DNA of 64,000 bases from the NCBI GenBank assembly GCA_905178155.1, contig CAJINV010000013.1, forward strand, positions 2,848,158 to 2,912,157. Direction: 5' to 3'. This DNA comes from Amoebophrya sp. A120. Lineage: Eukaryota; Protista; Dinoflagellata. Made by a program: the position numbers and the translations under genes. Shown here piece by piece: positions 3,001 through 30,956 of this stretch (within the stretch, counting starts at the first letter, position 1; the number at the start of each line of letters is the position of its first letter). The notes under the pieces are model-generated. The model saw only the letters and a program-made list of their open reading frames with translations. It made no database searches and was not told where the DNA came from.

Positions 3001-6000
3001 TGAGCGCCGCTCTTGCTGGGGTCTTTTGCAATACAAATTTTCGCTATTCACGGTTACAAACCTGCGATGCTGATAGATGGAAGACGGCGAATGTTTCATT
3101 TGGAAAGGTTTGCAGTACAAATGCTCCCAAGTTCGGGGGTGGGGGCATTTTTCATTGTAATAGCAACTCCACTTCGTTCACATTCGCTGTCGACGTTGCG
3201 GCTTGCGCCGTCGCGGACAGCTGCGGAGCTGCGCCAGCAGAAGTCAGCCCGGCCGTCAGCGAGTTCGTCGGGAGGTAATTATCGGGGGAATCGGGCGAAC
3301 TCGCGTTCGCGGCGGAGTGGCTGCCCTCGAAGTTCGCGGGGTTCAGACCGCCCGGGTTGCTCTGGATCATGTTCACGATCTGCTGATCCTGCTCCCGCAC
3401 CTGCACTCTTAGTCTGTTATTCTCCGCCGACAGGCTGGTCACCGTCTGTTGCAGTGCCGCGACGGACTCCGTCGTGGGCTGCGCAGCGGTGGTGGTGGCA
3501 CTAACTGTCGGTGTGCTTGATGTCGAAGAGTCGATCACGATCGGGGGAGCTGCAGCAGCTGCTGTTACCCCAGCAGCAGCAGTAATACCTCCCGCGCCGC
3601 TTACTAGCGACGACACGAGACTACTGCTGGCCGCTGCCGCGGAAGAAGTAGCTCCTGCAGTACTTGCCCGTCCGCCCAGCAGGTTCTTCTGCGTTTCCGT
3701 GTCCAGAATGGCTTGCAACGCCGCCACCAGCTGGTCAAAAATCGTTTTCGGCACCGTCGTCGCCGCGCCAACAGCACCAACCTGCCCCGGCCGGTTGTAC
3801 ATGGACGACCCGACCATCCCCGCACCGACCACCCCGCCCGGCCGAATCATGCTGGTCGGACTCCCCGGACGACCGATCATCGAGGACTGCTGCGCGCGAA
3901 CCGCGACCGTAGCCTTGTCCTGCGATTCCTTCAGCGCTTTTGTGATTGAGGAGTGAAACTGATCCAGCCGCTGCTTGGTGTCCGCGATGGTTTTCTCCAA
4001 GTCGGTGATTTTCCTTCCAGATTCGGCAATGGAGCTATCCCCACGCGTGTTCGCGCGGTTCAGGGAGAGGTTTTCGTCTTCGAGTTTGCTCATTTTCAAC
4101 CGGAGTTCCTTTATCGCAAGAAAAAAGTGCTACAGTTACACACTGTGTTGCAAGACCGGCAACACAGATAACCTGTCTCATGCAGGAAATGCTTGGGAGC
4201 CTCGTTTCCTTCCTGTTTAGCCTTATGATTTTCGCATTACAAGTTTTCCCTCCCACACGAAGAAAATTTGTGATGCAGAAACTCCAACAAATGTGTAACT
4301 GTAACACTTTTTTCTCGTGATATCCTTGATCAACTCTTCATTGCTGTATCTTTCCTCCTCCAACTTCTTGATAATTTCCGCGGTTTGCGACTGCTGCGCG
4401 GAGGATGCTGTCGCAGTGGTTGCACCTGCCGCGGCAGACGACGTAGAAGCCGCAGGAGGCGTAGAAGTTGTAGGAGCACCACCTCCCTCAGCTACGTCAA
4501 CCGCCAGCATTCCCTGCTCCTTCGCGTCTTGACACAAGCGGCGGAGCTCCCTGAGCAAAGTTGCGGTCTCGAAGGAGGCGATGGAGACCTGGCCGTCGTA
4601 TTTGGACTTCAGTTTGTCCAATTTCAGCAGCAACTCCCGGGTGTTCGTACCCTTCTGGACCAACGCTGCGTTTTTCTCCACCAAATTCGCAATGGACTGG
4701 GACACCTTCTGCTGCTTCTGGCTCGCCTCCGCCTCGGCCAGATCGGTTTTCGACGCGTTGCGGTCTGGACTAGAGGACGCTGCGATGTCGTCGGGGTTGG
4801 TTGTTTCTGGGAGAAACTGTACGGTTGCGAGATGCTTCCGGATTTGAAACAAAACCCTGTTCACGTTCGCGTCGTCCAACTTCGCCTCCTTCTGTTGGTT
4901 CTCGATCAAGTCCCTCATGTCCTTCTGAAACTGCAACAATTTCCCGTTATTGTTTGTCACAACCGCATACGCCTCGCGGAACTGCTTCACCTTCTCCCGA
5001 AGCGACTGCAGCTCCTTCGCAGAAAGCGTAGTCGCGGCTTCGGCTGTTTGTCCCGCGGGTGGTGCTGTGCTGGGGTCCTTCACAGCCACATTCCCGGTGA
5101 CGATTTGATCCCGCAGGCGGGTCAACTCCTGCTGCTCCTCGCGGAGTCTGCGGTCGAGCGTGGAAATTTGGTCCTGGGCGACGGTCAGTTGCGTTCGGAG
5201 GGTGGTGACCTCGGTCGTGGAAGAAGAACTTGAAGAAGCTCCTGCTGTCCCGAGCACTCCGGATGTTGAGCTTGTCGCCCGCAGCCGCAGCTGCTGATTC
5301 TCCACCTCCAACTGCTGTACTCTGCTGGTCAAAGTTGCGAGTTGCGCACTATTACTAGCACCGGCAGCAGAAGTAGTCGTGCCAACAGCACTTCCACCGC
5401 GCTCCGCCGCTTCTCGGGTCAGTCTTGACTTCGTGACCTCCAGCTCGTAGACCTTTTCCTGTGTTTGTTTCAAGTCGTTTCGCAGCCTCGACTCCTCTTC
5501 GATAGAGAGTCCAGCGCGGGACGGGGACGCACTGCTCAAATCCCGCACTCGTCTCCGCAACGACTCTAATTCAACATTGTCCTGCTCCAACCTCCTTACC
5601 TTCGCCTGCAACGCCGTGAGCTCGTCTAATTGCGATTTCAACCGGTTGTTCTCCTGTTTCACAATCTGCAGCTCCTGATTCGCGGCGGCACTCGCCTGTG
5701 GCGACAGGCCCGATTGGAACGCAGAGCTGGAGGAAGCAGCTCCACCGATTGTCGGAGTAGACATCCCACCTAACGTGGGCGTGCCAAGCGAGGAAGTGAC
5801 GCCGATCTCCTGGGACATCTTCGAGAAGTCTAACGACGTCGCTTTTTTGCTGTTCATGTCCAACTCTTCCAACAACTTCTTGCATTCCTGCTGCAGCGCC
5901 TCCCTCGCGTCCAACGAGCCCATCCCCCGTTGCAGGAGTAAAAAGATCTGCCTGGCCCGCCTCGTCAACTGCTCGTACTCCTCGACCGTTTTTTCGCATC

Positions 6001-9000
6001 GCTGCTTCAACTTCCCGACCTGCAGGCGCAGCAGGTCGTTCTTCTGAGCCAGGCCGAAGTTGGAATTGGATGGGGAAGTGCCTCCTGGCTGTTGATTCAA
6101 CTTCACGATCAAATCGTCCCTCTCTCTCCGGATCCTAGTCACCGTGTCCTCCAAGTCGCGAATTCTGACAGCACTTTGATCACCGCTCAGTGGCTGCGCG
6201 CTAGGCACAGCGCTGCTGGAAGATGAAGCAGCAGTGGCACCACCAGCACTCCCACCGCGTTCGATCTTGCGCTTCAATCGCGCGTTTTCATTTTCCAAAT
6301 CCTCGAGCCGCTGCCGCATGCCCGTAATCGTAGTGGGCGAGCCGATAGTACCTGCCGAGCCGCCACTTATGCCAATTCCACCCCCGATTACGTTTGGCGA
6401 GCTCGTCATCCCGCCCGGCCGTTTTTTCACTTGCTCCAACTCGATTTCCAGGTCGTCGATCCGGTCTAGCAATCTTGCGATTCGCTTATCTTTCTCCACC
6501 ACCTCGTCGATTTTCCCGGTGACCGCCTTCTTCGCATCCTCCAACAGCGCTTTCAACTTCTGCTCCGAGTCTAACGACTGTCTATTCAGCATGGCGTTCG
6601 ACGCTTCTTTCGATTTCCCCGCGATCACTTCGTCCTGGAGGGTCAATAGCCTTCGTTTCATGTCTTCCAGCCGATCTTCGTACGTCCGATTCGTCTTCTT
6701 CAGCTGCCGGATCTCGTCCTCCATCTTGGACTCGTCTTTCTTCGCGAGCAATTTATCTGCTTCTTGCTCGATCTGCTCGGTTTTCCACTTCTCGAGCATC
6801 TGTTTCAGGTTCTTTATCTCGTTGTTCTTTTCCTTCAGCTGCTTGCGGTATCAAATGCAAACATGTCTGGGTCTGGAACTTGTCATGCTGTTTTTGGATT
6901 CTAGAAAAATAAAACTAGCATTGCACAAGCAGCAAGAGGGGTCCAGTTTGTGCTACGCAGACAGGGCATCTGTCATGCGGAAGGCGCATCAGGAAGCTCT
7001 CTAAAAGTCTCTGATGCTAGGTCATGCATTACAGGCTTTATGGGTCATGGAAAATCTGCAAGACAAGTCTTACATCCTTCTAGACCCAGACATTTTTGCA
7101 TTTGATATGCGGCAAATCTGCACAATCCGCGCCAGATTGCTCGCCTCGTAATTCTTCTCCGACTGCTCCAGCTTCTGGTCCATGGCTTTCCGCTCGTGCT
7201 GGTACAGTTCCTGCTCGCGGTGGAGCTGCGCGATTTTCTCCTTCAACGTGTACAATTCGCTGTCCTTGCTCTGGATCGCGGACTGGAGTTTCTCGTGCTC
7301 GGTTTGGTGCTTTTCCAGCAGATTTCCATGTTCCTTGATCACCTTCAACGCCGTGTCGCTGCTGTTTTGCTCCCCTCTGCCAGATCCCAGAGGACCGCTG
7401 TTGTTTGTAGTTCCGCCACCAATCCGCGCGCTGCTCGCACCAGACGACTGCTCTCGCAAATTCCGCACGTTCAGTTGGGTTTCCAACGCGATCAAATTCG
7501 TTTTCAACTCGTTCACCTCCTGTTGGTGGTACCCTCGGTCCTCCTTGATTTTGATCTGCAGTTCCTGTATCTGTTTCTCCCGGGCGGAAAGTTGTTCCTC
7601 TTTTTGATCAATCACGGATTGCAGCAAGTTCACGCTCTGCTTCGCCGCTTCCCCGACCTTTTTCACCTCCTCGTCCTGTTCCCGCAACAGTTCCTGCCTT
7701 AACTTCTGCGCCGCGTCATCCCCCAAGTTTGCCTGCAGTAATTTCAGCTGAATCTCGGAATTTTTCAGTTTTCGCGAAACCGTGTCCAGCTGGAGGTTGA
7801 ACTTCTCCTCCTGGTGTTTCAGATCCTCCTTCAAAGACTCGTTCTCCTGCGATTTCTTCTGCAGCTTGTCCAAAATGTCCTCGATGCCCGACTGCAGCGA
7901 CCACTTCTGCCGCATGGAACTGCGGAGGTTCTGCGAGTCGGACACGTTCTGCCTCGACGAGAGATTGCCTGCTGGTGCTTGTTCCGTAGACTTGTTCAAC
8001 AGTTGCATGGCGGCAGGTCTGTATTGTAAGTTAAGCAGCATCATAATGAGGTTTTTAATAGAAAATCTTGTCATGCGAAAACAACGATGAACCATCAAAA
8101 TTTGTCATGCGAAAAAACCCTACAAATTTTTACCTGTTGTCCTGTATTGCCATCATCACTTCCTGTCCTTCCCGCAATTTCAGCCGCCATCTCTCCTCTT
8201 CCTGCTGCATCTTGACCTCAAAGTGCGCGTTCTGCTTCTGTAATTGCTCGATCGTGTGTTCCTTGGCGTCGTTCGATCGGTACAACTGATCCAGCTGCTC
8301 GGCCAACGAGTCCGCCTTCCGTTGGTTGCGCAACGCCTGGAGTCGTGCGTCGGACAGCTTCGTCGCTAATTGCATCACTTTTCTCCTAGACTCCACCAAC
8401 TCCGCCGTGTGGTCTATGAAACCAGCTCCTGTAGAAGTACTCGGCTGCTGTTGCTGTGCGCCGGACACAGTACTAGAGCCATCCGCCAATGCCGCTGGTT
8501 TGATGCTGCTATCCCCCTTCGCGTTCACACCGGCAAACAGGTCGTTCTTCAAGTCCGACAACAGTTCCTGTCCCTGCCGCGCTTGCTCCTTTGCCTCGTC
8601 GAGTTGGGTCAAAAGTACAGACTTGGATTTTCGAACCGTTTTCAAATCTTCCTCCAACTCGGATTTCCTCTTCGAAATTTCCTCCACTTGGTTCGTCAAA
8701 GAGTAGATTTTTTCCACGGAGAAACTGTTTTTCGCCGACAAGTCTTGCCGCAACTTGTCGTTTTCCAGCAGCGTTTCCGCCAGTTTTTCTCTTAATTCGC
8801 TCAATTCCACCTCCTTTTTCGCCTTCGTTTCTTCAAAATTACTCGTCAGAGTTAATTCCTCTTTCCTCACCTCCTTCAATTCGTTCGAAACGATCGACAG
8901 TTCCCGGTTCGCAAAGCTTCGTTCCCACTGCGCTAGCAGCAGTTTGTACTGCGTCTTCCCCACGTTCAACTCTAAATCATCAGACGCCTGCAACATCCGG

Positions 9001-12000
9001 ATCGTCTCCTGCAAGTGCTTCTTCTCCTCCTGCCGTCGTTTGATCACCCGCTCCAAGTTCTCCGACTGCTTTGCGCACACCTGCAGAATCCCGTTCTTCT
9101 GCGTCAGTTGGATCTTGAGCTGCTCGTTTTCGAACAAAACGGACTCGGCGAGCTTCAATTTCGGCTCGACCTCCTGCAAGGTGATGGTGCCCGCGAGCTT
9201 GATCTCCGTGTTCGCCCGTAACTGTCGTTCTTCGTGCAGCTCCTTCTCCAGCCGGAGGGTCAAATTTTCCAAATCCTGCACCTGCTTCGTCAGCTCCTTT
9301 TGTGTGTTGATTTTGGACTTCAGCTCCATCTCCAGAACCCCCGACCTGCGGTTCGCCGCTGCCATGCGCCACTCCGCAATCTGCGCAGCCATCTGCGTGT
9401 TGGAGGCCTGGGGTTTGGTGTCGAACCTGGACGAGGCGCTGTATTGTTGCTGGACTACTACTTGCTGCGGGATACTGTTGTTCTCTTCTGGGTAAAAGAG
9501 AAATTGCTGCGGCATCTGGTTCTGCCCAGAACCTGAACCAATACCAGAAGACGCGTCATAAGAACTACCTTGTTGCATGTTAGAAACGACCGTTCCTGGC
9601 ATTGGCGGGTTGAACTCGTCGTCTTCGGTTAGCAGCATCCTGCTGGCGTTCTGGAACTGCTTTTTGCACTTGGTCACAAAGTCCTGGTAGTTTACCGTGG
9701 CGATGTGCAGCAGCTTCTGCCGCACCGGTAAGTGGTCGTACTGCTGTTGCTGCATCACTTGCTGCGCGCTCGTTTCGTCGTAGCCGCACCAAGCTGCCAC
9801 CTTCTGCAGCTCTTCCGCATTCGCCAAGGCCTCGTGCGTGTTTTCCTCGAAAAACGCCGGGAGGCCGAAGGTTTTGAACACTTGGAAGATGTCCCCGAGC
9901 TTTACGAATTGACTGTTGTTCTGGAACACATGGAGCATCTTGAAGAAATTCTGCTCCTGCTGCGGCGGCACGCGCTGTTTCACCGCCGCCCAAAAGAGGT
10001 CCTCGCCGGACTTTTTCTGCAGGCCAAACAGGCGAAGCTTCGAAACAAAGGCCAGGAGGGAAACCTGTTCATAGTGGGGTTCGACCCTATCACTTCAATG
10101 TATGCCAATGCCTTCATTCGATGTGGCACAGTCGTGACAGACGAAGAAGCTTCATTTTGCTGCAGCTGCTACATTCGAGAAGATAAAACACAAGAAAAAA
10201 TCTTTGGCGAAATCACCATCCTCACCTCGTTGTAAAACTTCTAGAAATGTTCATTGAATAACGCAAGAAATAAGCCAAATCCTAAAGTACCTTTTTCCCC
10301 GGCCAGGACACCGCCGCATTTTGTCCTCCTCCGCCCGCGTTCATGTTCACATCGGTTTCCCCGACGAACCCAGTACTAGTTGAGGCGCCAGTCCCCAGCT
10401 GGTTCGCGGTCATGGTCAAGTGCCCCAGATCGGCGTTCGACCCCCCGCAGGCTTTCGCGATGGTCTCCATGTCCTCGGGTGTCAACTCGAGCTGCCCGCC
10501 GATCGACGCGATGGAAGACTGCAGAAAGTCGTAGATCGCGGACAACGTCAAGAACCCGTCGTGGTCGGAGTTCAAAACCTTCAATTTGTCCTCCACTTTC
10601 TTCCACGGGGGAGAAATTTCACTACTGGTTTCGTCCGCAAACATGCCCTCCGTGTACCACTCGCCGTAGTGGGAAAATTTTCGTTGCAGCTGCTTCACGA
10701 GAGACCGGAACAAAAAGCATTCCTGCTTGAAGTTCCCGTCGAAGGACTCTAACTTGTTCCGCAGCGTCGTCAACTCGAAGTCCGCCTCGATTTGAATCTG
10801 CTCCAAATCCGCGCACTTTTCCTCCAGCGCGACGAGCTTTCGCAGTTTGTCTTCCCGCTCCGCGTTCAACACGTACAGGTCGGATTGTCGGCGGAGCAAA
10901 TCCATCTCGCGCTGGAGCAAGGTGGAGAGCTGCTTGTTCACCTTTTCGTACTCCTGCATCGGCACCATTTCCTGGATTTTTTTACTCGCGATAGACAAGC
11001 TGGATTCCGCCCGCTGCTTCCACAGAGAGAGTTGCTGCACTTTTTGCTTCAAGTAGTCCTCCGCCTCGGAGGCTTGCAGTTCAATCGTGTCTAAGATCTG
11101 CTTCGTCGCTTATCCTGAGTAAAAACGTCCCCACCCCCTAGCCAAGATGGGGGCTTTACTACACAAATCCGCAAGATGTGGGCGCTGCGCATGACAAATT
11201 GCTACTCGTAGCTTAGTCGTGTTCAGCCTGCTCAGTCGCATCACAAATCGCTCGCCTTGTCCTGATTCCAGCATGACAAAGAACTCATCTCAGATAGCAC
11301 TCAGATATGACCCTCATGGGGCCGCGCATGAGATACATCTCAAGTTAAAGTTTGTTGAATGTGCATGGCAACTATGGCGTGGGGACGTTTCGACTTGGGA
11401 TATCGCCTTGTAATCTTGGTCCAATGCCTGGTACTTCCGCGCCATCTTCGACTCGTTTTCCTCCAAGATCGCGGTCCGTTGCATCAACTTCACGAGCTTT
11501 TCCCGGTCCGATTCGGCTTGCGAGGAGTTTCCTCCGGTCGTGGAGGAGGAGTATTACAGGGAAAAATACCCCCGCCCCGGAATTTGCAAACGTTTCTCAT
11601 GCAAAGTTTCCAAATGAAAGCCTTTTGTCTTGCATGAAAGGATCATGAGCGTTTCTAATCCAGAATCTAGGAGCGCGAGCGCAAGATATCTGCTGCGTAA
11701 CAGATCCGCCTGCTGTTGGGCTCCTTTGCAACATAAATTTGAGCGATTCAGCATAGAAAATTTGTGATGCTGATACAAGCAAGACGGGCAATATCTCCAT
11801 TGGAAAGGTTTGCAATACAAATGCTGCCAAGTGCGGGGGTGGGGGCATTTTTCATTGTAATAAGGAGAGCGTGGCCTTCAAGGATTTCACCTGCTGCTCC
11901 AGCGCGTTCGCGAGACTGACCTTCTCCGTCGCGTCCTTCTCGAGTTTGTCTTTTTCCTCCATCCACAAAGTCTTCTGCTTGAAAAAGTCGTTGTAAACCG

Positions 12001-15000
12001 CCTCGAAATATGAACTGCAAATATGTCTGGGTCTGGCAGAATGCAAACTTGTGGTGCGCATTTCAGAACACAGAAAAAGCTCTCATGCATAGGCTGCAAA
12101 AGTCGCCCACTTTCTGTCACCAAAGTCAGGGACTTGTCATGCGGATTCGGCATTGCGAACGCTTCTCGAAACCTGTGATGCTAGAGCTTCCATGCCAGAC
12201 CTTCTGCGTCATGCAAAAACAGCATGACTCTTCCAGACCCAGACATTTTTACATTTGATACGAAATTCGCCATCAGCTTCGACTCCTGCTTCAACTGCGT
12301 GTCTAAATCTCTCTTGTACAAGTCGTTCATTTATCAATTGCAAATATGTCTGGGTCTGGAAGGCGGCAACTTGTCATGGTAAATCTGAAGCATGCAAAAA
12401 TCTGTGTTGCATGAGAGCCAAAAGCTGTCCACTTTTGACCAAGTTGGAAGGGAGCTTCTCATGCAGGATAGGCATGGCAGAGACCTCGCAGAGTCTGTCA
12501 TGCTAAGTCCCGCATTCCAGACCTCATGGGTCATGGAAAATCTGCATGACAAGTTTACACTTTTCCAGACCCAGACATTTTTGCAATCCATATCATTTCG
12601 CTCAGGCGCGCGATCTCCTCCGACAGTTCCACAATCTGCACGTACAACTGCGCCACATCCCGGGGCTGGATCTGGTTCTGCTGCTGGCCGGGTAGTTGCT
12701 GCTGTCCAATCATGGGCTGCTGCTGCTCGCCACTCGACGACCCGCTGGCTTGCTTGCCGAGCAGCTTGGGCAAAATCTGGACGCCCTGGTTAAAGAGCTG
12801 CGAGTAGCCGGAGGGCGGCAGACCGGGGATCGAAGGCATCACCATGGCGGAAAGCTGGCTGGAGTGCGGCATCATGGCCGGCATCATCGGCGTCGGCATG
12901 GAAAACTGCGGCATCATCGGAGTCTGCATAACTGTTTTGATAAAGATTTTTGTGATTATAATTACTATACTGGTGGTAATGTAGTACAATGAGTCTCATC
13001 ACGACCCATGGTCGTGCTGTAGTAGAAGTAGTACTAACATTAAAAACACTGTAAGTAGTATACACGACATCCCCGGTCCCTGCATCGCGGCTGGTGTCAG
13101 CGCGGGGGTGAGCAGCTGCGGCATAATCACCGACTCCGCCGGCTCAGACGCGGCTGCGGCAGAGGTTTCCATGGCTTGCTTCTGCGCGTCTTTGGCGAGC
13201 TGTTTCAGGTTTAAGGTGGTTTTTGTGGAGGTACAACTGTCACTATCATGCAGACAAAAACTCGACCTCAGAAACTCCAGCAACCTGCTCACTGACGCGC
13301 CAGCGCAAACAGAGCGATAATAAATTTGTTGATCCACGACCTCAAGACTACTAATCGATGACAAGCGCATGTCCACCAGTTCTTGAAAATTCATCATATC
13401 CCATTTCCTGTACCTTTTCCTGCACTTCTTTCTCCTTTCTCGCCTCTTCCACCGCTTTCCTCGCCGACGCCAACCTGGTTTCGTCCTCCGTCATCTTGCC
13501 GCTGAGCGCCCGCGCCTTCCGCTCCGCCTCCTGCTTCGCCTTCTCCGCGTCGGACAGGCTTTTCTGGTCCTCTTCGCGCTTTTTCTGCTCCGACGCGAGC
13601 AGTTTCTCCTGCTCCTGCAGCTTTTTCTCCGTGTCCTCCAGCTTTTTCTTCTGTTCCTCCGCCTGCGCCCGCCGCAGACTGGCGGCCGCGCCCAGCAGCT
13701 TGCCGCCCGCGGCGGAGATCTTTTTCTTCCCGTCGGTCGTCGGCGTTTGCGCCTTCATATGGTCCGTCGTCGGCGACGTCTGCGTGCCAATCTGCTCGCG
13801 AACTTGCACGCCCTGCTGCATCTGCTGCTGGAACATGGCCAGTTGGTCTTGCTGCTGCTTCTGGATCGCGGCCAGCTGCTTCTGCAGTGCGGAGTCCTGT
13901 TCCGCCGTTTGTGGCCCCCCGGTCTTGTTGTTCCCCTTCATCATCCCCGCGAGGCCGCTCGCCATTTTCAGCATGGACGCCCCCGAAGATGCGGCACTGG
14001 TCTGCGGCACCGCGACCCCCGCACTCTGGGCAATTTGCTTCAGCTCCAAATTCTCCTTTTCGAGCAGCAGACACCGCTCTTTCAGCTGCGCCTGCTCCGT
14101 CACCTTGGACACCACGTCGTCCATTTTCCGGTCGACGTGCTGACTCAGCATGTCGCTCACCTGCTTGTCCTTCCGGGCAAGCTGGGACTCGAGTGCGTCC
14201 ACCTTTTTCCGCAATTCGCGGCTGTTGTCCGTCTCGGGCAGGTGCAGACTGCCCCGCCGCTATCCAGTGCAAAGGAATCGCACTTGTAGTTGTAATCGCA
14301 GTCTCATGCATGACAGACCTATGGTTTATTTGGGGCAAATCAACAGCGTTCTTTCTCTTGGTAAAATGAATTTGTATTGTAATTATACCCAAGCACGATA
14401 TACTTTTGCAATGCATAGACGCATGGTTTCCGCAATCTGCTCCAGCTGCAGCATCTGGTCCGGCTCCATACCGTTGAACAAAATGGATTTCTTGTGCTGT
14501 GTAAACACGTCCCCCCCCCAGACTTATTTTAATCAAAAGCATCTATCATGCCTAAAAATGTTTCTCATGTTGCGCATCCCCCACTACATGAGAGCCATTT
14601 TCTATCTAATGGAAATTTTGTGATGCTGGAGTCAGGACGTGGTAGCTGATTTTTGATGCTAAAACAACCGCGCCGAAGACAACTGTGCCAACCACGGAAG
14701 CAAGCCTCCGCAGGCAATAGTTGATTGGTGATGCGCCTGCACAACAACAAACTACCTCAAACAGCAAGGTGCTACATTACAAGCGATGTCCAAGCTTGTC
14801 ATGCGAAACAGAATCAACAAAGTCGCCATCTTGACTCTGCTAGGGTGGAGACGTGGTCGTCGTGTAGTTTTCTCCGGATACTTCTCACTCGCCAGCCCGG
14901 CCAGGGACCGGAGCTTCTATCCAAAAGAAAACTGTGTTAGTGTAACTTTCTTCGGCTGGCAGCATCACAAATTTGCTCTACATGACAGAGAAAACCTGTC

Positions 15001-18000
15001 ATGCGCGGCTTGTAAGAGAAAACACACATGAAAAGAGGACTTTATGGTTGTCTGGCAAGACAGCTGCAACTCTGTTGCATGTTCTGCATTACAGAGTTAC
15101 AATTACACAGTTTTTTCTTGCATAGCTTCATCTTCAACTGCAGTCGCTCGTCCTCCAGATCCAAAATCTCCTTTTCCAGCTATCAAAAGGAAAAATCCCC
15201 CCTCCCCATATCGAAATGGAAATCTGTGATGCGCGATTTGTGTACGCAAGTCGGCCTTGTGTTGCAGTAGAAGACTGCAGGCAGATGCAAAGCCGATGTA
15301 GGGGCGCTTTGGTGTAGGGACCTAGCAAGGCAGGCATATCCTCCGTTGTAGGCCATACAGCATTACAAATTGCCTGCAGAACGCGGCGGGGTTTTTGGAT
15401 TTGCTTTCTTGCAATACAGAGACGATTTGTGGTCTCAAATCAGCATCACAAATTTTCAGAAGTGTCCCGTTTTGGTCTGGGGAGGGGGGATTTTTCCTCG
15501 CAATACCAGCTGCTTCTGCATGGACACCGCCTTGCTCGCGGACACCTTTTCTTTCAACTTCACCTCCGACAGGTCGAGCAATTGGTCGCTGGGGATGTTG
15601 GACCACTGGCGCAACAGCGTGTTTTCGTACATGATATTACTCGCTTCGTTCAGATACGTGGACAGTTCCTGTTTTGTCTCCGACAGCTCCTGCTTCAGCT
15701 TCGTGTTTTGCAGCCGCATCTCGGTCATCTTCTTGTCCCAGTCAATATCCCGGAAAACAAAAAAGCAGGCAGGGCATATTGATATTTGTATAATGCAAAA
15801 ATATCAAGTTCAGCAGCAAAATCTGCTATGGGCGACCCCAACATAGCATGGCGTTTAGGACAACATGCAACGAAGATTTGAATTTGATTAGATTTTGTCT
15901 ATTTGCGTTTGCATGACATCAAATATGACATGCCTGTCTTTTTCTGAGGGATAGTCGAAAGCCTTGCCGGGCTCGTCGCCAGATAGGTGGTGGAGAAACT
16001 CTATCCTGAATAAAAACGTCCCGCCCACACCAGACTCATCAAGATGGGAGATCAGCTAGACAAATCAACCAGCTTTGGTTGTTTCGCATGCCAAGTTTGT
16101 CCTCGTAGTGTGGCCCTGTTTAGCTAGTTCAGCGGCATCACAGGTCTAGCATATCATGCTGGCTCTAGCATCAGAAATTGCAAAACACGAGGACTACTAG
16201 AAAATGCTTCTCATGGGCGGGCTCCGCATGAGCAACTCTTTTCGCATGCAGATTTGCATGGGGGCGTTTTTACTCAGAATAAACTCGGACTTCTGCTTTT
16301 CCAATTCGTGCAGCTTCTCATCCTTGTGCTGCAGCTCGGAACGGAGTTCCGCGATCATGGTCTCGAATTGCTGTTTCTCTTCCGATATGCATTGCAAATC
16401 TCGATCTCAGTCTAGAAGGTTGCGACTTCCTTGTGATCAACATGCTTTGTTTTTCGATAATTCTTTCTAAAAAAATCTCTTTTGTGTGACAGGCAAGAAG
16501 AGGAGTCTACTTTGTGCTACGCGGGAAGGGCGTTTCTCACGCGAGAGTAAAGGCATCAAGTACAACTGGCCCTCAAAAAATTATCTGTGATGCTAGGTAT
16601 ACAACATCACAGGCAACATCATGGACTGAGACTATGCATAAAGTGCATGACAAAGAACTTTGCGCGTTTCCAGACCACGACATATTTCCTTTGCGTATCC
16701 TGCTGAAATGGGTGGTTCTTTTCGTAGTGCTTAAACTGTTCGATTTTTTCGCCCAGCGAAGTCTCCAGCTTGTCGATATGGATTGTAAAAATGTCTGGGT
16801 CTGGAAGGTTGGAACTTGTAATGCTAGCTTTCCACACCTAGAAAATCTGTATTGCATAACCAACAAAAGTCGCAGCCTCTTTTGTCATGCAAAAACACAG
16901 TTTCTCATGCGGATTGCCTATGAGAAAGCGTTTTGAGAACTTGTCATGCCGGACTGCATTAGGAAGTGTTTTCATCATGCACATTGTAGCATCACAAGTT
17001 TCCACCCCCAGACATTTTTGCATTTCATACTCGATGCGATCGTACAAGTGCTCGATCTCCATATCCCGGTCGTGCACCATCGTCATCTATCAAATGTAAA
17101 AATGTCTGGGTCTGGAAGAATGCGAGATTTGTCATGCTGATCTGGCATGGCCCTTAAATCTGTATTGCGTGGCCACAAACAGCCTCTCTCGCCTGTCATG
17201 CAAAAACGCAGTTTCTCATGCGGAATACGCAGCACAGAAGCACGAAGCAACTTGTCATGCTTGGCGGCGCATTACATACAGTGCATTTGTTATTGACTGA
17301 CTTGCATCACAAGTTTCCAGACCCAGACATTTTTGCATTTCATATCATCAAGTCCTCTAGTGAACCCGAGTTGCTGCTCAAACCCGCGATTTTTCGCACC
17401 TCGTTGATCTCGTGCTCCAGGGAGGAGACTTTCGCAGCAAGGACCTGCGTATGCATTGCAAATATGTCAGTCTGGGTCTGAAAAACTGTTTATTCAAATT
17501 TCAGGCAACACAAGACAAATCTGTCACGCATGAACAGCAAATGCGGCTCAAAACTTGGCACCAAACGGTTAGGGGGGTGTCATGCGGATTAGGCATTGAG
17601 AAACTTTCTCAAGACGTTTGATGCTAGGACTTGCATGCCAGACTGACCTCCTGGGTCACGCAAGAGCAGCATGACAAGCATCTACACGCATCCAGACCCA
17701 GATGACTACATATTTGATGCATTTGTATTTGATACTGCGCCTCCTTCTCTTTCGCGGTCAGTTCCTCCTCCTTCTTCGTCATTACATCGTGCACGTGGTG
17801 ATCATACTCCGCCTCGAAACGGTGCGCCGCCTCTAATTGCACCGTTTTTTCCTCCAGTGTCGCTTTCAGGTTATCAGAGTGAAAAACTTCCCCTCCCCAT
17901 AGCAACACGGAAATCTGTGATGCGGGATCTGTGTACACAAATCCAATCTGTCTAGCAGTAGGGGACTGCAGGCAAATGCAGTGCCTGAGTAGGGGCGATT

Positions 18001-20567
18001 TGCTGTAGACGCGCCTAGCAAGGCAGGCACGTCCTCTGTAGGCGATACAGCATTACAAGGCGCCTGCGAAACGCGGCTGAGTTTCTGGCTTTGCCCTCTT
18101 GCAATACAGGGACGATTTGTGGCCACAAATCAGCATCAGAAATTTTCAGTGGTGCCCCTTTTTGGTATGGGGAGGGGGGATTTTTCCTCACAATACAGGT
18201 AGTGGTTCTCGCGCTCGAACTCTTCCACGTCCTTTTATGCAAGAAAAAAACTGTGTAAGTGTAACTCTGTAATGTAGAACATGCAACAGAGTTACGCCTG
18301 TCATGCCAGACAGCCATGAAGTCCTCTTTTCAAGTGTGTTTTCCCTTACAATCCACGCATGACAGGTTTTCTCTGTCATGTAGAGCAAATTTGTGATGGT
18401 GTCAACCAAAGAAGGTTACACTAACACAGTTTTTTTCTTGGATACCTTTTCGCTCTGGTGCAATGTCTGTCCTGAGAAAAAACGTCCCCACGCCGGGCAG
18501 TAAAGATGAACAAAATGGAAAATTTTCCAGATGGAGAAGCTTCGGGTGGACAAGTGACAAAAGTTGTTTCTCTCTGTACAGCCAGTAGAAGTGTAGTGCA
18601 GTTTAGCAAGGAGGACAGCCGCATGCATCTTCACGAAGCCATTTACTTTCCCTTATCCTCCCGTTTACTAAGCACTACAAATGATAGAACAAGTTTTATA
18701 CCTGAAATACGAATGCTTCCCAATCTCCAACTTCATCCCGAGGAGGGGACGCGCGTTACTTTATACAAATGCGTGGGTAGTACTATGCGACTTGTTTGCA
18801 TGACAAGTCCTGGGTGCGGACGTTTTTTCAGCAGGATAACTTCGCCTCCAATTCGTCAAGGTGGTCATGCAACTCGTCGATTTCCTTCTGCTTATGGATT
18901 GCAAAATGTATGATTTGTATCGCACTAGTGTATTAAAACACGCATCGCAACATGACAGCACATTTCTGCAAGATGAAAAACGGGCCTATTTTCATGCAAA
19001 ATCAATATCTATGTGATCGGGATCGGTACGACTACGAGCGCGATAAAACTAAAACTGTACTTTTATGCCATGGATACTGCTTGCTGTCGGAAGACTTCAG
19101 AAGATCGATCTGCCGCTTCAAATCGGAGTTGTCTTTATCCAACTTGGCGTTCATGTCTTCGAGATCCGATAGGTGCTTCAGCATATGGATTGCAAAAATG
19201 TGTGGGTCTGGAAGAATGCAACTTGTGATGCTACTTTTGGAATCCTGTATTGCATGAGCAGCAAGAGGCGTCCGGTTTTTGCTCCGCGGAGAGAGGATTT
19301 CTCATGCGGGATAGGCATCAAGATGCCCGCAAAAAATTTGTGATGCTGGGGCATACATCACAGACATCACGGGTCATGCAAAATGTGCATGACAAACATA
19401 GCAATCTTCCAGACCCAGACAATTTTGCATTTGATACAGCAGTTCCGTTTGCGATTTGATCGACTTTTGGAACGTCGAGTCCTGCTGCTGGTTTTGGCTG
19501 TTCATGTTCTGCTATGACACGGGGCAAGAACCTCTTCTCGCGGCCCTCGTCCCTTACAGATATTTTCTTTGTGTAAAAATAATGTGCATTCATCAACAAA
19601 TTATATTAAACACGAAGAATAAATCGATTTGATGTCTTCGTGCAGCCTGGTGGCACTGTTCTTGGCCAATGGATAGTTGCGTCCTCGAAATATTAGCTCA
19701 ACTAGAACCACTTACTACAGTCCGTCTGTGGACGACGAGTTCTCGCCATGCAGAAGCTACATCGTGCGTGCTGTTGTAGTTATTTCCAGTGCTGCTTAAT
19801 AAATATGCCACACGGAAAAATTGCACGGGGAACAAAGGGGAAGAAGCTCTCGCAGAGTTGTGCATTCTTCTGATAGCTGATTCTGCTCCTGCAGCATATT
19901 TCGCTCCTGGCGGGTCTTCATCAGCTCTTCGTCTAGCATCTGCCGCGAATGTCTCTCCCGGTCCAGCAGCATCTGCAGTTCACGCATTTTCTGCCCCTGC
20001 TCCTGGTCTTGCAGATCCCGGTCCCGCATGGCCTGGCGAGCCATATCCAGTTCCTGGGAGGCAGCGCCGAAGTTTCTAAATTGATTTTTTTCGTATTTTT
20101 TTACTAACGCCGAAATTTTTGCACAATTGCGTTTTCATCTTACACAAAATCGAAGCACTTTGCGAAATTGTCTCGGTAGCAAAGCAGTAGATGAGAGACG
20201 CTTCGAGTAGAAAACAAATCTACTGGCATGGAGAAAGTAAGTACTTATACCTCAACTGCGACTGCGTCTCCAACAACTGCACGTCCTGTTGGTTCTTCTG
20301 TTGCTGCAGCATCTGAAATTGCTGGCTCAGTTGCTGCAACTGCATCTCCTTCTGTTGCATCATCTGCTGCAGCTGGTTCGGGTCCTGGGGCCCGCCCAGC
20401 CCCCCGCCGGAAACTCCCCCCATTCCGCCGGGCTGCGGTCCTCCCAGCGGTTGCTGCATGCCGGGCTGCGCGGCGCCGGCGGGTCCCATTCCGAACCCGC
20501 CCGGATTGCCGTACGGGTTGTTCGGAGGAGGTCCACCGCCGGGTGGCGGATTGTTGTAGGGATTCAT
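1..20567 (-). CDS. CEP290: CEP290-like giant coiled-coil transition-zone protein; 3' end runs off the window; 26 introner introns plus GT-AG introns (8019-8133, ~10017-10290, ~12930-13063, 13200-13413, 20076-20250)
   Basis: Hand splicing gives one continuous frame from ATG 20567. Segments 'YENTLLRQWSNIPSDQLLDLSEVKLKEKV...KQLEKEILDLEDERLQLKMKLR', 'RTAILEENESKMARKYQAL' and 'LQASDDLELNVGKTQYKLLLAQW' resemble conserved CEP290 blocks (from memory, not a database search). Confidence 0.75.
428..734. mobile_element. Introner, family 2 (TIR TATCAAAAGGAAAAATCCCCCC)
   Basis: TIRs; TSD GGTGA/GGCGA; removal gives FHTRLAELSAVN. Confidence 0.9.
2213..2484. mobile_element. Introner, family 1 (TIR TAT..AAAA.GTCTGGGTC)
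   Basis: TSD CGCGT/CGCGT; removal gives NANASLSEK. Confidence 0.92.
2544..2805. mobile_element. Introner, family 1
   Basis: TSD GGAGG/GGAGG; removal gives TKASTEWQ. Confidence 0.92.
2858..3162. mobile_element. Introner, family 3 (TIR TATTACAGTGAAAAATACCCCC)
   Basis: TSD GCAAC/GCAAC; removal gives EVELLAKK. Confidence 0.92.
4112..4322. mobile_element. Introner, family 5-related (TIR TATCGCAAGAAAAAAGTG.TACAGTTACAC)
   Basis: TSD TCCTT/TCCTT; removal gives ELIKELRLK. Confidence 0.92.
6849..7107. mobile_element. Introner, family 1
   Basis: TSD TGCGG/TGCGG; removal gives QICRKQLK. Confidence 0.92.
11111..11402. mobile_element. Introner, family 4 (TIR TATCCTGAGTAAAAACGTCCCCAC)
   Basis: TSD TCGCT/TCGCC; removal gives YKATKQIL. 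Confidence 0.9.
11552..11862. mobile_element. Introner, family 3
   Basis: TSD AGGAG/AGGAG; similar to 2858-3162; frame restored. Confidence 0.92.
12009..12260. mobile_element. Introner, family 1
   Basis: TSD CGAAA/CGAAA; removal gives LMANFEAVY. Confidence 0.92.
12332..12592. mobile_element. Introner, family 1
   Basis: TSD TCATT/TCATT; removal gives LSEMNDLYK. Confidence 0.92.
14261..14417. mobile_element. Introner, family 6 (TIR TATCCAGTGCAAA..ATCGCAC)
   Basis: TSD GCCGC/GACGC; removal gives ETMRRGSL. Confidence 0.85.
14493..14880. mobile_element. Degenerate introner, family 4
   Basis: Ends TGT...ATA; TSD TTTCT/CTTCT; removal gives LASEKSILF. Confidence 0.75.
14918..15124. mobile_element. 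Introner, family 5
   Basis: TSD GCTTC/GCTTC; removal gives LKMKLR. Confidence 0.92.
15181..15505. mobile_element. Introner, family 2
   Basis: TSD CCAGC/CCAGC; removal gives KQLEKEI. Confidence 0.92.
15746..15953. mobile_element. Introner, family 7 (TIR TATCCC..AAAAAAGC..GCAGGGCAT)
   Basis: TSD GTCAA/GTCGA; removal gives KAFDWDKK. Confidence 0.85.
16002..16281. mobile_element. Introner, family 4
   Basis: TSD AACTC/AACTC; removal gives KSEFLHHL. Confidence 0.9.
16386..16697. mobile_element. Degenerate introner, family 1
   Basis: Ends TAT...GTA; TSD TCCGA/TCCTG; removal gives FQQEEKQQ. Confidence 0.75.
16777..17029. mobile_element. Introner, family 1
   Basis: TSD GTCGA/CTCGA; removal gives YDRI(E/D)KLE. 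Confidence 0.9.
17088..17344. mobile_element. Introner, family 1
   Basis: TSD TCATC/TCATC; removal gives EDLMTMVH. Confidence 0.92.
17450..17734. mobile_element. Introner, family 1 (diverged)
   Basis: TSD CTGCG/CTGCG; removal gives KEAQVLAA. Confidence 0.9.
17872..18195. mobile_element. Introner, family 2
   Basis: TSD CAGGT/CAGGT; removal gives ENHYLKAT. Confidence 0.92.
18236..18444. mobile_element. Introner, family 5 (inverted relative to 14918-15124)
   Basis: TSD CCTTT/CCTTT; removal gives QSEKDVEE. Confidence 0.92.
18468..18838. mobile_element. Degenerate introner, family 4
   Basis: Ends TGT...ATA; TSD ATGTC/ACTTC; removal gives LEAKLHQS. Confidence 0.75.
18893..19076. mobile_element. 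Degenerate introner, family 1-like
   Basis: TSD CTGCT/CTGCT; removal gives DSKQKEID. Confidence 0.85.
19184..19436. mobile_element. Introner, family 1
   Basis: TSD CAGCA/CAGCA; removal gives TELLKHLS. Confidence 0.92.
19513..19875. mobile_element. Highly degenerate introner, family 8-like
   Basis: Ends TAT...ATA, resembling 49950-50174; TSD TCTGC/GCTGA; frame restored. Confidence 0.65.
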
Positions 20568-25379: not shown

Positions 25380-28300
25380 TCAAAACTGTAAAGCGCTTAC
25401 CGGTTGTTCTATTTTCCACGTACTGCTATTTTGAAGTTGACAGCTGGTTATTTTTCAAGAACTGGAGTCGATTCAAGTAAACTTTTTATCATGAGCTTGC
25501 GAATTTGTGATGCTAGTTCTTGAGGCAAATCCGCATTACAGATTCAATCTCTGCAAGCATTGGAAATGGAATCTGTGATGCGGATTTTCCTCAAGAAGTT
25601 CCTGTTCCTGAGGCAAATCCGCATTACAGATTACATTTCTACAAGCATTGGAAATGGAATCTGTGATGCGGATTTTCCTCAAGAAGTTCTTGAGGCAAAT
25701 CCGCATTACAGATTCCATTCCTAATGCTGAAGCTCTAAAGCTTTTTTTGGAGGCAAGTCCGCAAATGGAATTCCTCAGCATTGCAAAGCGAATCTGTAAT
25801 GCGGATTTGTCTCAAGAAGACTTCTTGAGGGATTTATGTCTAGAAGACTCTCTGAGGCAAATCCGCATTACAGATTCCGTTTCTAGTGCTGAAGTCCTCA
25901 AGTTCTTTCTTGAGNNNNNNNNNNNNNNNNNNNNNNNNNNNNNNNNNNNNNNNNNNNNNNNNNNNNNNNNNNNNNNNNNNNNNNNNNNNNNNNNNNNNNN
26001 NNNNNNNNNNNNNNNNNNNNNNNNNNNNNNNNNNNNNNNNNNNNNNNNNNNNNNNNNNNNNNNNNNNNNNNNNNNNNNNNNNNNNNNNNNNNNNNNNNNN
26101 NNNNNNNNNNNNNNNNNNNNNNNNNNNNNNNNNNNNNNNNNNNNNNNNNNNNNNNNNNNNNNNNNNNNNNNNNNNNNNNNNNNNNNNNNNNNNNNNNNNN
26201 NNNNNNNNNNNNNNNNNNNNNNNNNNNNNNNNNNNNNNNNNNNNNNNNNNNNNNNNNNNNNNNNNNNNNNNNNNNNNNNNNNNNNNNNNNNNNNNNNNNN
26301 NNNNNNNNNNNNNNNNNNNNNNNNNNNNNNNNNNNNNNNNNNNNNNNNNNNNNNNNNNNNNNNNNNNNNNNNNNNNNNNNNNNNNNNNNNNNNNNNNNNN
26401 NNNNNNNNNNNNNNNNNNNNNNNNNNNNNNNNNNNNNNNNNNNNNNNNNNNNNNNNNNNNNNNNNNNNNNNNNNNNNNNNNNNNNNNNNNNNNNNNNNNN
26501 NNNNNNNNNNNNNNNNNNNNNNNNNNNNNNNNNNNNNNNNNNNNNNNNNNNNNNNNNNNNNNNNNNNNNNNNNNNNNNNNNNNNNNNNNNNNNNNNNNNN
26601 NNNNNNNNNNNNNNATGCGGGCTCGGGGGCGCTGGGCACTTTCATAGGGGAGCTGCCAATCGTACACCAAAACCTTCCGGCCGTCCGTTGCCCCGGTAAA
26701 GGTGTGCCGCTTATCGTTCTCGCTGTAGCTTAGTTTTGCAACTCCCGTGTTGGTGGTCGCCGCAAACCCTATCCTGCGCAAAAATATCGCACCCGTAGTA
26801 ATTGCAATCATGCATTACAAATTTCCTTGATGTAGTAAATTAGAACTAGTGTAGTAACGAGCGATAGTTTTTAGAAGAAACAGCTAGCATCGTATGTAAA
26901 ATTGCAACTCGAACTTTCAAAAATGACCTATTTCCACGAGCAATGCAGTTTGTTTATTAACCCCGTCGATTGTGTAGCAACATCGCGCGAGAGGTTTTTT
27001 TTATAAACAAGGTAAATCCGCATTACAAATCTTATGTCTCACGCAGAGGAAATTTGTAATGCATTTAGTATACGAGTGCGATGCTTTTGCATTGCATACA
27101 CCCGCAGTGGCGGCAAATGCACCCCTTCCCCGCCAGGGGCGAGGAAGGGCGCACAAAGCCACGCATGGAGCTGTCAGGTTTGAAATCGTCAAAGTTGAAG
27201 TAGTTTGCTATGCATAAAATGCCTGTCTTGCTGAGTAGGCAAGGGAGGCAGATTGTGAGCCTGTTTCGGGGTAGAAAAAGAGCTGCTCAAGCAGCATGAC
27301 AACAGGCGTCCTCCTTGCCCTAAGAGAGTTACAAACTGCATTCTGACTCTAAATACTCAGCTTTGTCATGCGCCGCGTAGACATTGGGCTTGCAACTGGC
27401 ATCGATTTTATGCATTACAAGTTATCTCTACTTCAACTCTGCTGATTTCAACTCTGACACATCCATACCATGGCCCGCGAGAATCGTCCACAGGGACTGC
27501 AACTCGCCCGGGGAGGCGGGTCTTTTCAGCGGTTTTGCCCGGGATGACTTTTTGGCCGTTCTTATCCTGTGTAAAAACGTCCCCACCCCAGAGTTGTCAT
27601 GCAAATGTGCAATGACAAGAACATTTGTAATGCGGATGAGCATGAGAGGCATTTCCAATCTTGTTTTGGACTTTGTAATGCTGTGAACAGGATGAGAGGC
27701 TTGTTTTCTCATGCGGCTGTCCTTGCTAAACAGCACGACAATACAGATGGAAACTTGTCATGCAAAACTCCCAAAACTTGGAAATTTGTGTTCCAGATTT
27801 ACTAACTTGACTATGGGGTGGGGACGTTTTTACACAGGATAGTTCTGATGATTGACATCGAGCTCGCGGCGAGCATATCAAAGGTAAAAGGGTCTGGGTC
27901 TGGAAAAACATGCTGGCTTTCATGGCGCAGAAGGTGTGGCATGGAAGCTCTAGCGTCACAGGTCTCGACAAGCTTCCGCACTGCCGAATCCGCATGACAA
28001 ATTCCTCATTTTGGTGACAGAAAGTGTGCAGCTTTTGCGACCTATGCATGAGAGATTTTTCTGTATTCTGAAATGCGCATCACAAGTTTGGCGCTTCCAG
28101 ACCCAGACACTTTTGCACCTGATACCGTCCGTCGTCAGACGAGGTGCTGAAATCGTCGCAACTCAGCGGGCATCCTGTGCAAAAGTATCGCACTCATAGT
28201 GATTGCAGTTGTCACGCGTTACAAATATAAGTTTTTATTTTCTGAAGGCAAACCCGCATCACAAATTCCGCTACCAATGCTGCGGACCTTTGATGTGATG

Positions 28301-28763
28301 CAGATGCAAAAGCAATTCGTACTAGTTTGATTCTTTTGCAATAGATAACGGCTCTGCCTGCCATCCTTTGGACAAAACCCCCCACCCCACAGCCAAGACT
28401 GCACCTCTATCACAACTGCAAAGAAATTCTGGCCCTTGCGCATGACAAATTGCTGCCCTGCTCCTCGTTGCGAAAGTTACAAACAGCATCAAAAAAGCCT
28501 ATACGCGGGCGGCAGGCCAAATAGTTTGGCCCGGGCATGCAAATACGCACGGCAGGAATGGGGCGGGGTGTTTTTGCAAAGGATACCGCCGCCGCCGCGT
28601 GTTCCTGTTTCATGCGCGACGTCAAAGACGGCGGGGGCGAGGCTGGGGCGAAGCTGGGGCGGAGCTGGCGGGCCGGGCGGCGCGTCGGCTCCACCGGCGT
28701 GCTCCCGCTCCTCCCGACGGCCGTGCTGACAATCGCCGCGGGGCTGCTGCCGCTCCTTTTCAT
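25380..28763 (-). CDS. Multi-exon hypothetical protein, WD40/beta-propeller-like C-terminal part; spans an N gap
   Basis: ATG 28763; exons 'FTGATDGRKVLVYDW' and terminal 'STWKIEQPVSALQF*'; interrupted by at least 5 introners; frame not fully resolved. Confidence 0.45.
25517..25914. repeat. Tandem array of ~80-bp palindromic units (TTGAGGCAAATCCGCATTACAGATT..AATCTGTGATGCGGATTTTCCTCAA)
   Basis: Three to four hairpin units visible before the N gap. Confidence 0.85.
25915..26614. other. Assembly gap
   Basis: Run of N. Confidence 1.
26770..27098. mobile_element. Introner, family 6
   Basis: TSD AACCC/CACCC; TIRs similar to 14261-14417; frame restored. Confidence 0.8.
27563..27841. mobile_element. 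Introner, family 4
   Basis: TIR TATCCTGTGTAAAAACGTCCCCACCCCA; TSD GTTCT/GTTCT. Confidence 0.92.
27876..28124. mobile_element. Introner, family 1 (inverted near-copy of 12009-12260)
   Basis: Clear TIRs; flanks GAGCA/CCGTC do not form a TSD. Confidence 0.8.
28171..28347. mobile_element. Degenerate introner, family 6
   Basis: Ends CAT...ATA; TSD GCGGG/ACGGC. Confidence 0.65.
28362..28585. mobile_element. Introner (TIR TATCCTTTGCAAAAACACCCC)
   Basis: Ends CAT...ATA; TSD CCTGC/CCGCC. Confidence 0.75.
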
Positions 28764-29760: not shown

Positions 29761-30956
29761 TTATAAAAATAACTGCCAACCATTGCCCCCATCCGAGGAC
29801 CTGATGTCCACAAAGGGGCAAGTACGACCGACGCAAACCGGACGTGGTGTGGGATTCGTGCCGACCACCACCACGGCCGGCGCGGTGGTAGTCGACGTCG
29901 GTGTGGTAGTTGGCCTCGGGGTGGTCGTCGGCGTCGGGGTGGTAGTCGGCGTCGCAGTCGTAGTAGTCAGGGGCAGGACGCCGTCGTGAACATCCAGGGC
30001 AATACTGGAGCGCTTTGGATAACACTGCAGGTTCTTCACGCTCGAGGGCAATCCTGGCAGACATCAAACAGAAACCTGCGCGACCAGTGCTGTATTTGGA
30101 CAGCATACACGACGCGTCACATAATTCAGATCACGCACATTTCCGATTTCTGAAACAAAGGGAATGATGACCATTTAGCAACAAATCCATTCGACTAGTG
30201 TAAGCCAGACGAGAAAGATATATACTGCTGACATCGGAAATACAAATATACAACGACACCGAGAGATACGCTCATGACAAATCCGGCATGGGCGCGCTTT
30301 TCTTTTTCATAGTATACTGCCTATTAGGCCGTCCGGATACATGTTATTTGCGTCGTCCGGAGAGCTATTCTTGGGAAAAATAGAAGTGCCCCCACCTCGT
30401 GTCGGGTTTGTGCTGTTTCTCGAAGATTTGGCTTTTCGTAAACAAGTAACGTCGACGTGGAGAAAACAAGGCGACACGACTACAGCGACAGTTCTTTTTT
30501 CTCAGCGTGCTGAAAGAGTTAAAGTAATCGCTCGACTGCTCGTCCAACTTGTGCACGCAAAACCAAAAGCAAATCCAAACTAGGCGCCAACGAGTACACA
30601 TTACTTCGGGTATTTCCGTCAGGGCGGGGGTACTTCATTCCAATATGATATCGGCGCGCCGCCATTCCCTGCACTCCTCCGTACCACCAGATAAGACAGT
30701 CGTTTTTTGGGGAATCCGGATAGATAACACTATTATCAGTATAATTGAACGTTCCCGCTTGAAACGCACCGCAGCGTGAGTCTTCATTGCAGTTGCGCTC
30801 ACACTGGTAGAAACTGAATTGGGCGCTGAAATAAGAAAACACATTGAAGTCTGCACACGACGCACCACCGCACGTGCATATGCCGCGACCTTGGTACGAA
30901 TAAATGCTGGTCTGGTATCCTGCACAAAAGCACACCCCCGGCATACTCGACAACAT
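29761..30956 (-). CDS. Probable surface protein fragments: Cys-rich PAN/apple-like module plus Thr/Pro mucin-like repeat; exon structure unresolved
   Basis: 'CERNCNEDSRCGAF' and 'TPTTTPTPTTTPRPTTTPT' in separate minus-strand ORFs. Confidence 0.35.

Follow-up and report, generated by a model that had tools for sequence, protein, structure and literature searches.

The closest described counterparts of the elements treated here are the introners of Amoebophrya sp. A120, the organism from which the 64,000-nt stretch of DNA under study was taken (contig CAJINV010000013.1, positions 2,848,158 to 2,912,157; referred to as the window). In the accessible text of Farhat et al. 2021 (PMC7789003), these introners are about 240 nt long, carry inverted repeats (IRs) composed of an initial TAT, a stretch of seven variable bases and then an A run, and are flanked by direct repeats of 3-5 nt (5 bp in the legend of Fig. 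S19). A hairpin model for them has already been drawn in the same paper (Fig. 4 legend and text). The minus-strand genes of this eukaryotic window are broken up by elements of 150-390 nt that start with TAT, end with ATA and possess inverted ends of about 25 nt and 5-nt direct repeats (DRs) at their flanks. They resemble the A120 introners of PMC7789003 in the TAT IR with its A run, the DRs, the RNA-seq-backed removal, the many copies per gene and the co-oriented gene blocks. Non-coding families of 150-400 nt and a mostly non-GT-AG removal were likewise found here, and these traits suggest that the two are identical. The system itself is already known, the elements, their RNA removal and the hairpin model having been published in 2021 and introners of either orientation no later than 2020. 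What differs from the published account, in which the border position is called variable or unknown (PMC7789003), is the fixed register proposed here, with one base taken before UAU and four after AUA in transcript sense (the 1+4 cut), which is a small, testable refinement of a known system.

Related information on Amoebophrya comes from several sources. Either-orientation insertion of the A120 introners is not stated in the accessible text of PMC7789003, though figures S19-S25 of that paper may show part of what is described here. Gozashti et al. 2025 (PMC12130899) describe A120 introners partly as terminal inverted repeat (TIR) transposons, using a filter that demands same-orientation matches, and another Amoebophrya, which has U1, is reported to contain canonical introns (PMC12005148). 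A literature search, with subscription journals largely outside its coverage, returned no paper in which a fixed register is given for Amoebophrya or the splicing mechanism is settled.

Aside from Amoebophrya, four systems share parts of this architecture, as far as the accessible parts of the sources go. The introner-like elements of Polarella glacialis and Aureococcus anophagefferens (bioRxiv 2020.10.14.339549) are TIR elements that form introns both ways, and their splice sites span the boundary between target site duplication (TSD) and element, as in class 12, which combines the terminal G of the 5-nt TSD with the first base of the element; they keep GT, GC or GA donors and an AG acceptor, whereas here only the U at +2 is fixed and AG is rare. 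Euglenid nonconventional introns (PMC11282704, PMC11170887) also lack GT-AG and have an end-joining TIR stem with asymmetric overhangs, TSD-like repeats and a proposed origin from miniature inverted-repeat transposable elements (MITEs), but they differ in stem register and consensus (+4..6 / -8..-6), have no pyrimidine tract and are released as circles. The introns of Fritillaria borealis (bioRxiv 2025.08.15.670264) are MITE-derived, non-GT/AG and handled by a modified U2 spliceosome; their preferred termini are AG-AC and AG-AT and U1 is present, while the 3' dinucleotide is free here. Finally, the internal eliminated sequences (IESs) of the ciliate Blepharisma (bioRxiv 2022.05.02.489906) share the TIR/MITE origin, the bounding DRs and the single copy left after precise removal. 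Ciliate IESs, however, are germline-limited, cut from DNA by a domesticated transposase and mostly bounded by TA-containing repeats, in contrast to the DNA-retained elements with free DRs in the window.

Removal of the elements from host-gene transcripts

Forty-three elements were curated by hand from two scans and reading, by which decayed copies were possibly missed; three doubtful candidates (30062-30311, 47572-47835 and 27172-27459) were kept out of all counts. A perfect 5-nt DR flanks 26 of the 43, compared with 0.14% of random flank pairs, and none has a perfect repeat of 6 or 7 nt, so that the DRs are not due to chance. Their sequence is free at all five positions, without the TA-containing repeat of ciliate IESs. 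In transcript sense the 5' tip is TAT in 41/43 elements and the 3' tip ATA in 38/43; A occupies +12 to +14 in 33-34 of the 37 elements in genes of known strand, the set to which all counts out of 37 refer, and a U-tract lies at -19 to -15 near the 3' end. The elements form several repeated families of 150-400 nt without coding capacity, and in sequencing run X1 the depth over them reaches 400,000 compared with about 50 in unique exons. As part of the overall best explanation, they are probably transposon copies of the MITE type, with TAT...ATA at their inverted ends and target duplications of 5 nt. Two host genes were analysed:

1..20567, minus strand: host gene 1, a coiled-coil protein of at least 4,155 codons that continues beyond the window edge; contains 26 elements and 5 GT-AG introns
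35009..40679, minus strand: host gene 2, a Y-family (DinB/Pol-kappa-like) polymerase of 1,204 aa; 7 elements in both orientations; Pfam IMS PF00817, E=6.8e-11

Removal of the 26 elements, each with one DR, and of the 5 GT-AG introns from gene 1 yields 4,155 stop-free codons from an ATG at 20567 to the window edge. When an element is kept, or cut with no DR or with both DRs, a premature stop results in 26/26 cases, and the same holds for 7/7 elements in the 1,204-aa frame of gene 2. Homologous proteins from Polarella glacialis and Effrenium voratum, 23-29% identical to the gene 1 protein, align with it across the junctions. Because every retained element stops translation of conserved proteins, the elements must be removed in vivo. 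Reading frames on their own do not discriminate between cuts, as taking 0 or 5 of the bases from a given DR copy opens the frame equally well.

The part of the window between 10900 and 20600, which contains 20 elements, was further compared with sequencing contigs. Run X3, the kind of which is recorded as 'RNA?', contributes one 18,436-nt contig at a depth of 74, whose pieces skip the elements and three GT-AG introns; since GT-AG introns are missing, this contig is judged to be spliced cDNA. The exon model matches 11/11 of its offsets, one canonical donor having been set from its own offset. All 20 elements are missing from it, each together with exactly 5 nt, through direct joints (11111-11402, 18236-18444 and 18468-18838) or exact length sums, the latter including 14918-15124 (an exact 153-nt sum), 12009-12260 (a 207-nt sum) and 15181-15505. 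Run X1, of a kind not on record and possibly the source of the window, produced contigs that keep the GT-AG introns and, at a single-copy depth of 40-45, cross 8/20 elements end to end; one holds the left junction of 14918-15124 and enters the element by 51 nt. The remaining elements are not crossed because high-copy elements break contigs. Since X1 contigs pass through elements at unique-exon depth, the element-bearing allele predominates in the DNA of the X1 sample. Run X6, from the same sample, gave short low-depth contigs over introns, and run X9 gave 22 raw reads over element sequence, all only partly on the stretch. The elements considered for orientation and cut position are as follows:

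14918..15124, minus-strand gene: element of 207 nt, TAT...ATA; perfect DRs 14913-14917 and 15125-15129; predicted intron 14914-15125, minus, CT...AG
18236..18444, minus-strand gene: element of 209 nt, family of 14918-15124 inverted; perfect DRs 18231-18235 and 18445-18449; predicted intron 18232-18445, minus, formally canonical GT...AG
12009..12260: element of 252 nt, largest family; removed from RNA by the 207-nt length sum
27876..28124: element of 249 nt, inverted relative of 12009-12260, without DR; probable minus-strand open reading frame (ORF)
15181..15505: element of 325 nt, G-rich TIR family; orientation as 17872-18195, opposite to 35434-35731
35434..35731: element of 298 nt within the Pol-kappa-like gene, related to 15181-15505 but inverted; its excision with one DR is needed for an open frame
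11111..11402: element with DR copies differing at position 1; RNA joint 11105/11403; opposite to 14493-14880, same family and gene
14261..14417: element with DR copies differing at position 4; RNA piece ends at 14255; crossed by X1 contig
15746..15953: element with DR copies differing at position 2; RNA piece ends at 15739; crossed by X1 contig
18468..18838: element with DR copies differing at positions 3 and 4; direct RNA joint; crossed unbroken by X1 contig
19513..19875: element with DR copies differing at transcript positions 1 and 5; intron 19509-19876, CT...AG
14493..14880: decayed element that is removed all the same; ACA at its transcript-sense 3' tip; hairpin not predicted; the 1+4 cut would give it a GT donor
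2544..2805: element belonging to the largest family and opposite in orientation to the adjacent 2213-2484 of that gene; frame needs removal; beyond the RNA-covered stretch

Several observations concern the elements and gene 1 in their own right. The 8-nt motif TGT(G/C/A)ATGC was counted 92 times within the elements (11.8 kb) and 18 times in the 51.5 kb outside them; it is present in 39/43 elements across different families, mostly directed inward from either end, and is likely a shared transposase-binding site, judging from its distribution. Exons of gene 1 as short as 17-18 nt separate adjoining elements (18446-18463) and are kept in the spliced contig. The canonical GT-AG intron at 8019-8133 holds two copies of the element motif, at 8069 and 8103, suggesting that some canonical introns may be decayed introners. 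The five canonical introns (at 8019, 10065, 12932, 13200 and 20076; n=5) have A-rich acceptors without a pyrimidine tract (e.g., AAACAG, ATACAG), unlike the U-tract of the elements. The best homologues of the gene 1 protein are dinoflagellate proteins (two named of three matches), and the co-oriented genes and a GC content of about 50% fit a host such as Amoebophrya A120 or a close relative; no full-length protein of this organism was among the matches, and a CEP290-like coiled-coil protein with EF-hands was hinted at weakly by below-threshold hits only.

Orientation of the copies and position of the cut

An initial annotation of this DNA had named three pairs of elements as members of one family lying in opposite orientations, and alignment bears this out. 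Global identity to the reverse complement is 0.90 for 14918-15124 and 18236-18444, 0.85 for 12009-12260 and 27876-28124, and 0.70 for 15181-15505 and 35434-35731, versus 0.65, 0.63 and 0.61 in forward orientation, and the internal-only local scores are 219 vs 23, 249 vs 15 and 106 vs 25, respectively. Both members of the first pair lie within one minus-strand gene, have perfect 5-nt DRs and are missing from the spliced contig with one DR each, which confirms the proposal that removal takes place irrespective of orientation. Further inverted pairs were found within single genes: 2544-2805 versus six relatives from its own family, all in gene 1, 14493-14880 versus both 11111-11402 and 16002-16281, and, in gene 2, 35434-35731 versus both 38722-39040 and 39107-39427.

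The accompanying statement that the frame is restored both ways stands for 15181-15505, by RNA length sum, and for 35434-35731, by frame only; for 27876-28124, strand and splicing are deduced. This last copy has no DR (1/5 bases match) and probably lies in a minus-strand ORF, which stays open under the 1+4 cut. Together with 35434-35731 and a position-5 mismatch at 36793-37073 it lies beyond the contig-covered part of the window, and all three are read from sequence alone.

Imperfect DRs, the copies of which differ, reveal which copy the transcript keeps. The copy upstream in transcript sense supplies position 1 (elements starting at 11111 and 19513), position 2 (15746), positions 3-4 (18468) and position 4 (14261). 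Position 5 at 19513 comes from the downstream copy: the RNA piece there begins with 19877, not 19876, and has no other letters. The 1+4 cut fits all five RNA-covered imperfect DRs (11111, 14261, 15746, 18468 and 19513), and the intron therefore likely has the form N-UAU...AUA-NNNN, reaching beyond the inverted repeats by one base on the 5' side and by four on the 3' side, with position 5 coming from one RNA site. This departs from the symmetric signal, with a stem closing on UAU/AUA, that the initial annotation had postulated, as the cut lies asymmetrically 1 nt outside one end and 4 nt outside the other.

Under this register, G is found at intron +1 in 17/37 elements versus a background of 31% (one-sided p=0.043, uncorrected), compared with 8/37 at the mirror position (p=0.73). 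A GT donor is formed in 17/37, an AG end in 4/37 and both in 1/37, so that the GT donor and AG acceptor typical of U2 introns are not the rule. Of the inverted sisters, 18236-18444 reads GT...AG and 14918-15124 reads CT...AG, and at the position-5 mismatches the upstream base is G in 3/4, giving a GT donor. For A120, the predominant non-canonical classes given in table S4 number nine, each with an N-T start (Farhat et al. 2021, PMC7789003, as far as the accessible parts go). When six DR splits were compared, these published classes arose often only from the 1/4 split or its mirror (8/37 each), with 0/37 for 0/5.

Candidate mechanisms of removal

Taken together, the explanation considered probable is that the elements stay in the DNA and leave the RNA in either orientation at a fixed polar register, with a modified U2-type spliceosome as the likely catalyst; taken alone, the involvement of such a spliceosome is favoured to a modest degree. 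Owing to the inverted ends, a transcript would present the same 5' end either way, N-UAU, which is GU-donor-like in having U at +2, and likewise an identical 3' end, with the U-tract at -19 to -15, AUA at -7 to -5 and then four free bases. N-UAU would be used as donor, and the acceptor would be fixed by its distance from AUA. The argument that polar spliceosomal signals could not work in both orientations is thus not supported, since inverted ends present the same polar signals either way; introners with splice sites in either orientation have also been published (10.1101/2020.10.14.339549, accessible parts). According to the accessible text of PMC7789003, A120 retains U2, U4, U5, U6 and U2AF and lacks just 6 of 89 spliceosomal proteins, whereas U1 small nuclear RNA was not found, and the Fritillaria report (bioRxiv 2025.08.15.670264) describes a spliceosome that handles mostly non-GT/AG introns.

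End-to-end pairing would draw the junctions together and may replace the undetected U1 and the absent AG. Arm-to-arm pairing is predicted in 33/38 elements in sense and 32/38 in antisense, and the UAU/AUA tip is itself predicted to pair in 27/38 either way, whereas end pairing is below 0.5 in all 5 canonical introns. A sense-strand bias of hairpin strength was sought among these elements and none was found (Wilcoxon p=0.85; p=0.42; G-U 38 vs C-A 35). The terminal stem is accordingly a plausible aid to removal in the folding model, although a stem need not indicate a role in splicing because inverted ends exist anyway for transposition. The earlier hairpin proposal thus survives in so far as the information lies in the TIRs and pairing is predicted both ways, but a stem closing on UAU/AUA need not be the sole signal, as no hairpin is predicted for 4/20 RNA-removed elements (those at 14493, 18893, 19513 and 16386, with pairing values of 0.0, 0.0, 0.22 and 0.31 among them). 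A separate idea, that decayed hairpins are offset by GT or AG, was dropped (3/5 vs a base rate of 20/37).

Several points weigh against this spliceosomal explanation and its register. An AG end in only 4/37 elements and GT-AG in 1/37 are far from canonical, and no conserved branch motif stands out among the 37 elements, A at -22 being present in 22/37. A stem from +2 onward would need unwinding for U6 pairing. As to the register, position 5 depends on one RNA junction (19513); U at +2 in 37/37 follows from how the elements were picked and is therefore not independent evidence; all host genes are on the minus strand, which confounds transcript polarity and strand in the 1+4 asymmetry; and at 16777-17029 the Polarella homologue (29% identity) has Glu but the 1+4 cut yields Asp, weakly favouring 0/5 there. 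Table S4 was derived from Hisat2 junctions, may mirror aligner preference and does not distinguish 1+4 from its mirror. With respect to DNA retention, the kinds of X1 and X3 are unrecorded, contigs drop rare variants, the DNA represents one sample and the joint data amount to 15 of 828 rows, with joint rows swamped by repeat cross-mapping, so that rare element-free alleles are possible, as are such alleles in other life stages.

The strongest rival is a non-spliceosomal, structure-guided RNA cut-and-ligate reaction like that of euglenids, which would gauge its cuts as 1 nt and 4 nt away from the terminal stem and might free a circle; it is in effect the initial hairpin idea turned asymmetric, and is possible but rather unlikely. 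The free acceptor dinucleotide (AG in 4/37), the arm pairing in 33/38, predicted equally for either orientation (Wilcoxon p=0.85) and not reaching 0.5 in any of the 5 canonical introns, and the missing U1 of A120 (PMC7789003) are all in its favour, as are the euglenid stems offset at both ends (+4..6 with -8..-6) in introns freed as circles (PMC11282704). It is opposed by the four removed elements with little predicted end pairing and by a slight G excess at +1 only, as well as by the near-complete spliceosome of A120, 15% of whose canonical introns share the IR/DR layout (PMC7789003, accessible text), which suggests one continuum. A pathway of the ruler type, requiring no U1, AG or branch point, measuring 1 and 4 bases from the inverted ends and convergent with euglenid introns, is a still more doubtful candidate; if it were true, any insertion of these transposons would be harmless in either orientation.

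Events outside RNA processing are far less probable. Programmed IES-like excision of DNA before transcription, which the initial annotation had wished to see excluded, would likewise leave one DR copy, as in the MITE-derived Blepharisma IESs with TIRs and DRs (bioRxiv 2022.05.02.489906), and a symmetric staggered DNA cut could also draw positions 1 and 5 from different copies. Against this very improbable course, and with the view of DNA limited to one sample, DNA-type contigs cross 8/20 elements unbroken at unique-exon depth and the assembled window holds all elements, while positions 2-4 come from the transcript-upstream copy at 3/3 informative sites, where a symmetric cut would choose at random (a weak argument, with a chance of 1 in 8). 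No germline/soma nuclear pair is known in Syndiniales. Template switching by reverse transcriptase, for which a hairpin plus a short DR is a classic substrate, might fake junctions in RNA evidence that consists of an assembled cDNA contig. It is ruled out as the explanation, its likelihood being negligible, since the 4,155-codon frame needs all 26 elements gone and retained elements stop translation, in 26/26 and 7/7 cases, of proteins conserved across the junctions (dinoflagellate homologues; Pfam IMS); moreover, elements with 3/5 matching DR bases (18468, 19513) or without a predicted hairpin are cut as precisely.

If the 1+4 register holds genome-wide, 'no clear splicing signature' would become the one rule N-UAU ... 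AUA-NNNN, about 30,000 annotated borders could be placed exactly, and the sites where lariat or circle junctions would lie would be given. Insertion would be tolerated in both orientations and at nearly any target because the register is fixed and polar.

Other features of the window

Some regions of the window contain related or unrelated features. At 27172-28585, three elements with eroded or no DRs (27876-28124, 28171-28347 and 28362-28585) occur beside 27172-27459, which has TGT...ACA ends, within the probable minus-strand ORF, open for about 160 codons under the 1+4 cut; if these elements are spliced, DR identity would be dispensable. A cluster of the element motif at 25480-25915 is embedded in larger direct and inverted repeats, runs into an N gap (25916-26615) and may mark where a long element, perhaps an autonomous one, terminates. 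A CTTAAG core is common to the 13-nt and 16-nt units repeated in tandem at 45400-46500, apparently in an intron of a membrane-protein gene. Finally, element-free ORFs of 360 and 504 codons lie on the plus strand at 56900-59715, opposite to the minus-strand block and after a GC-rich segment at 53800-56500.

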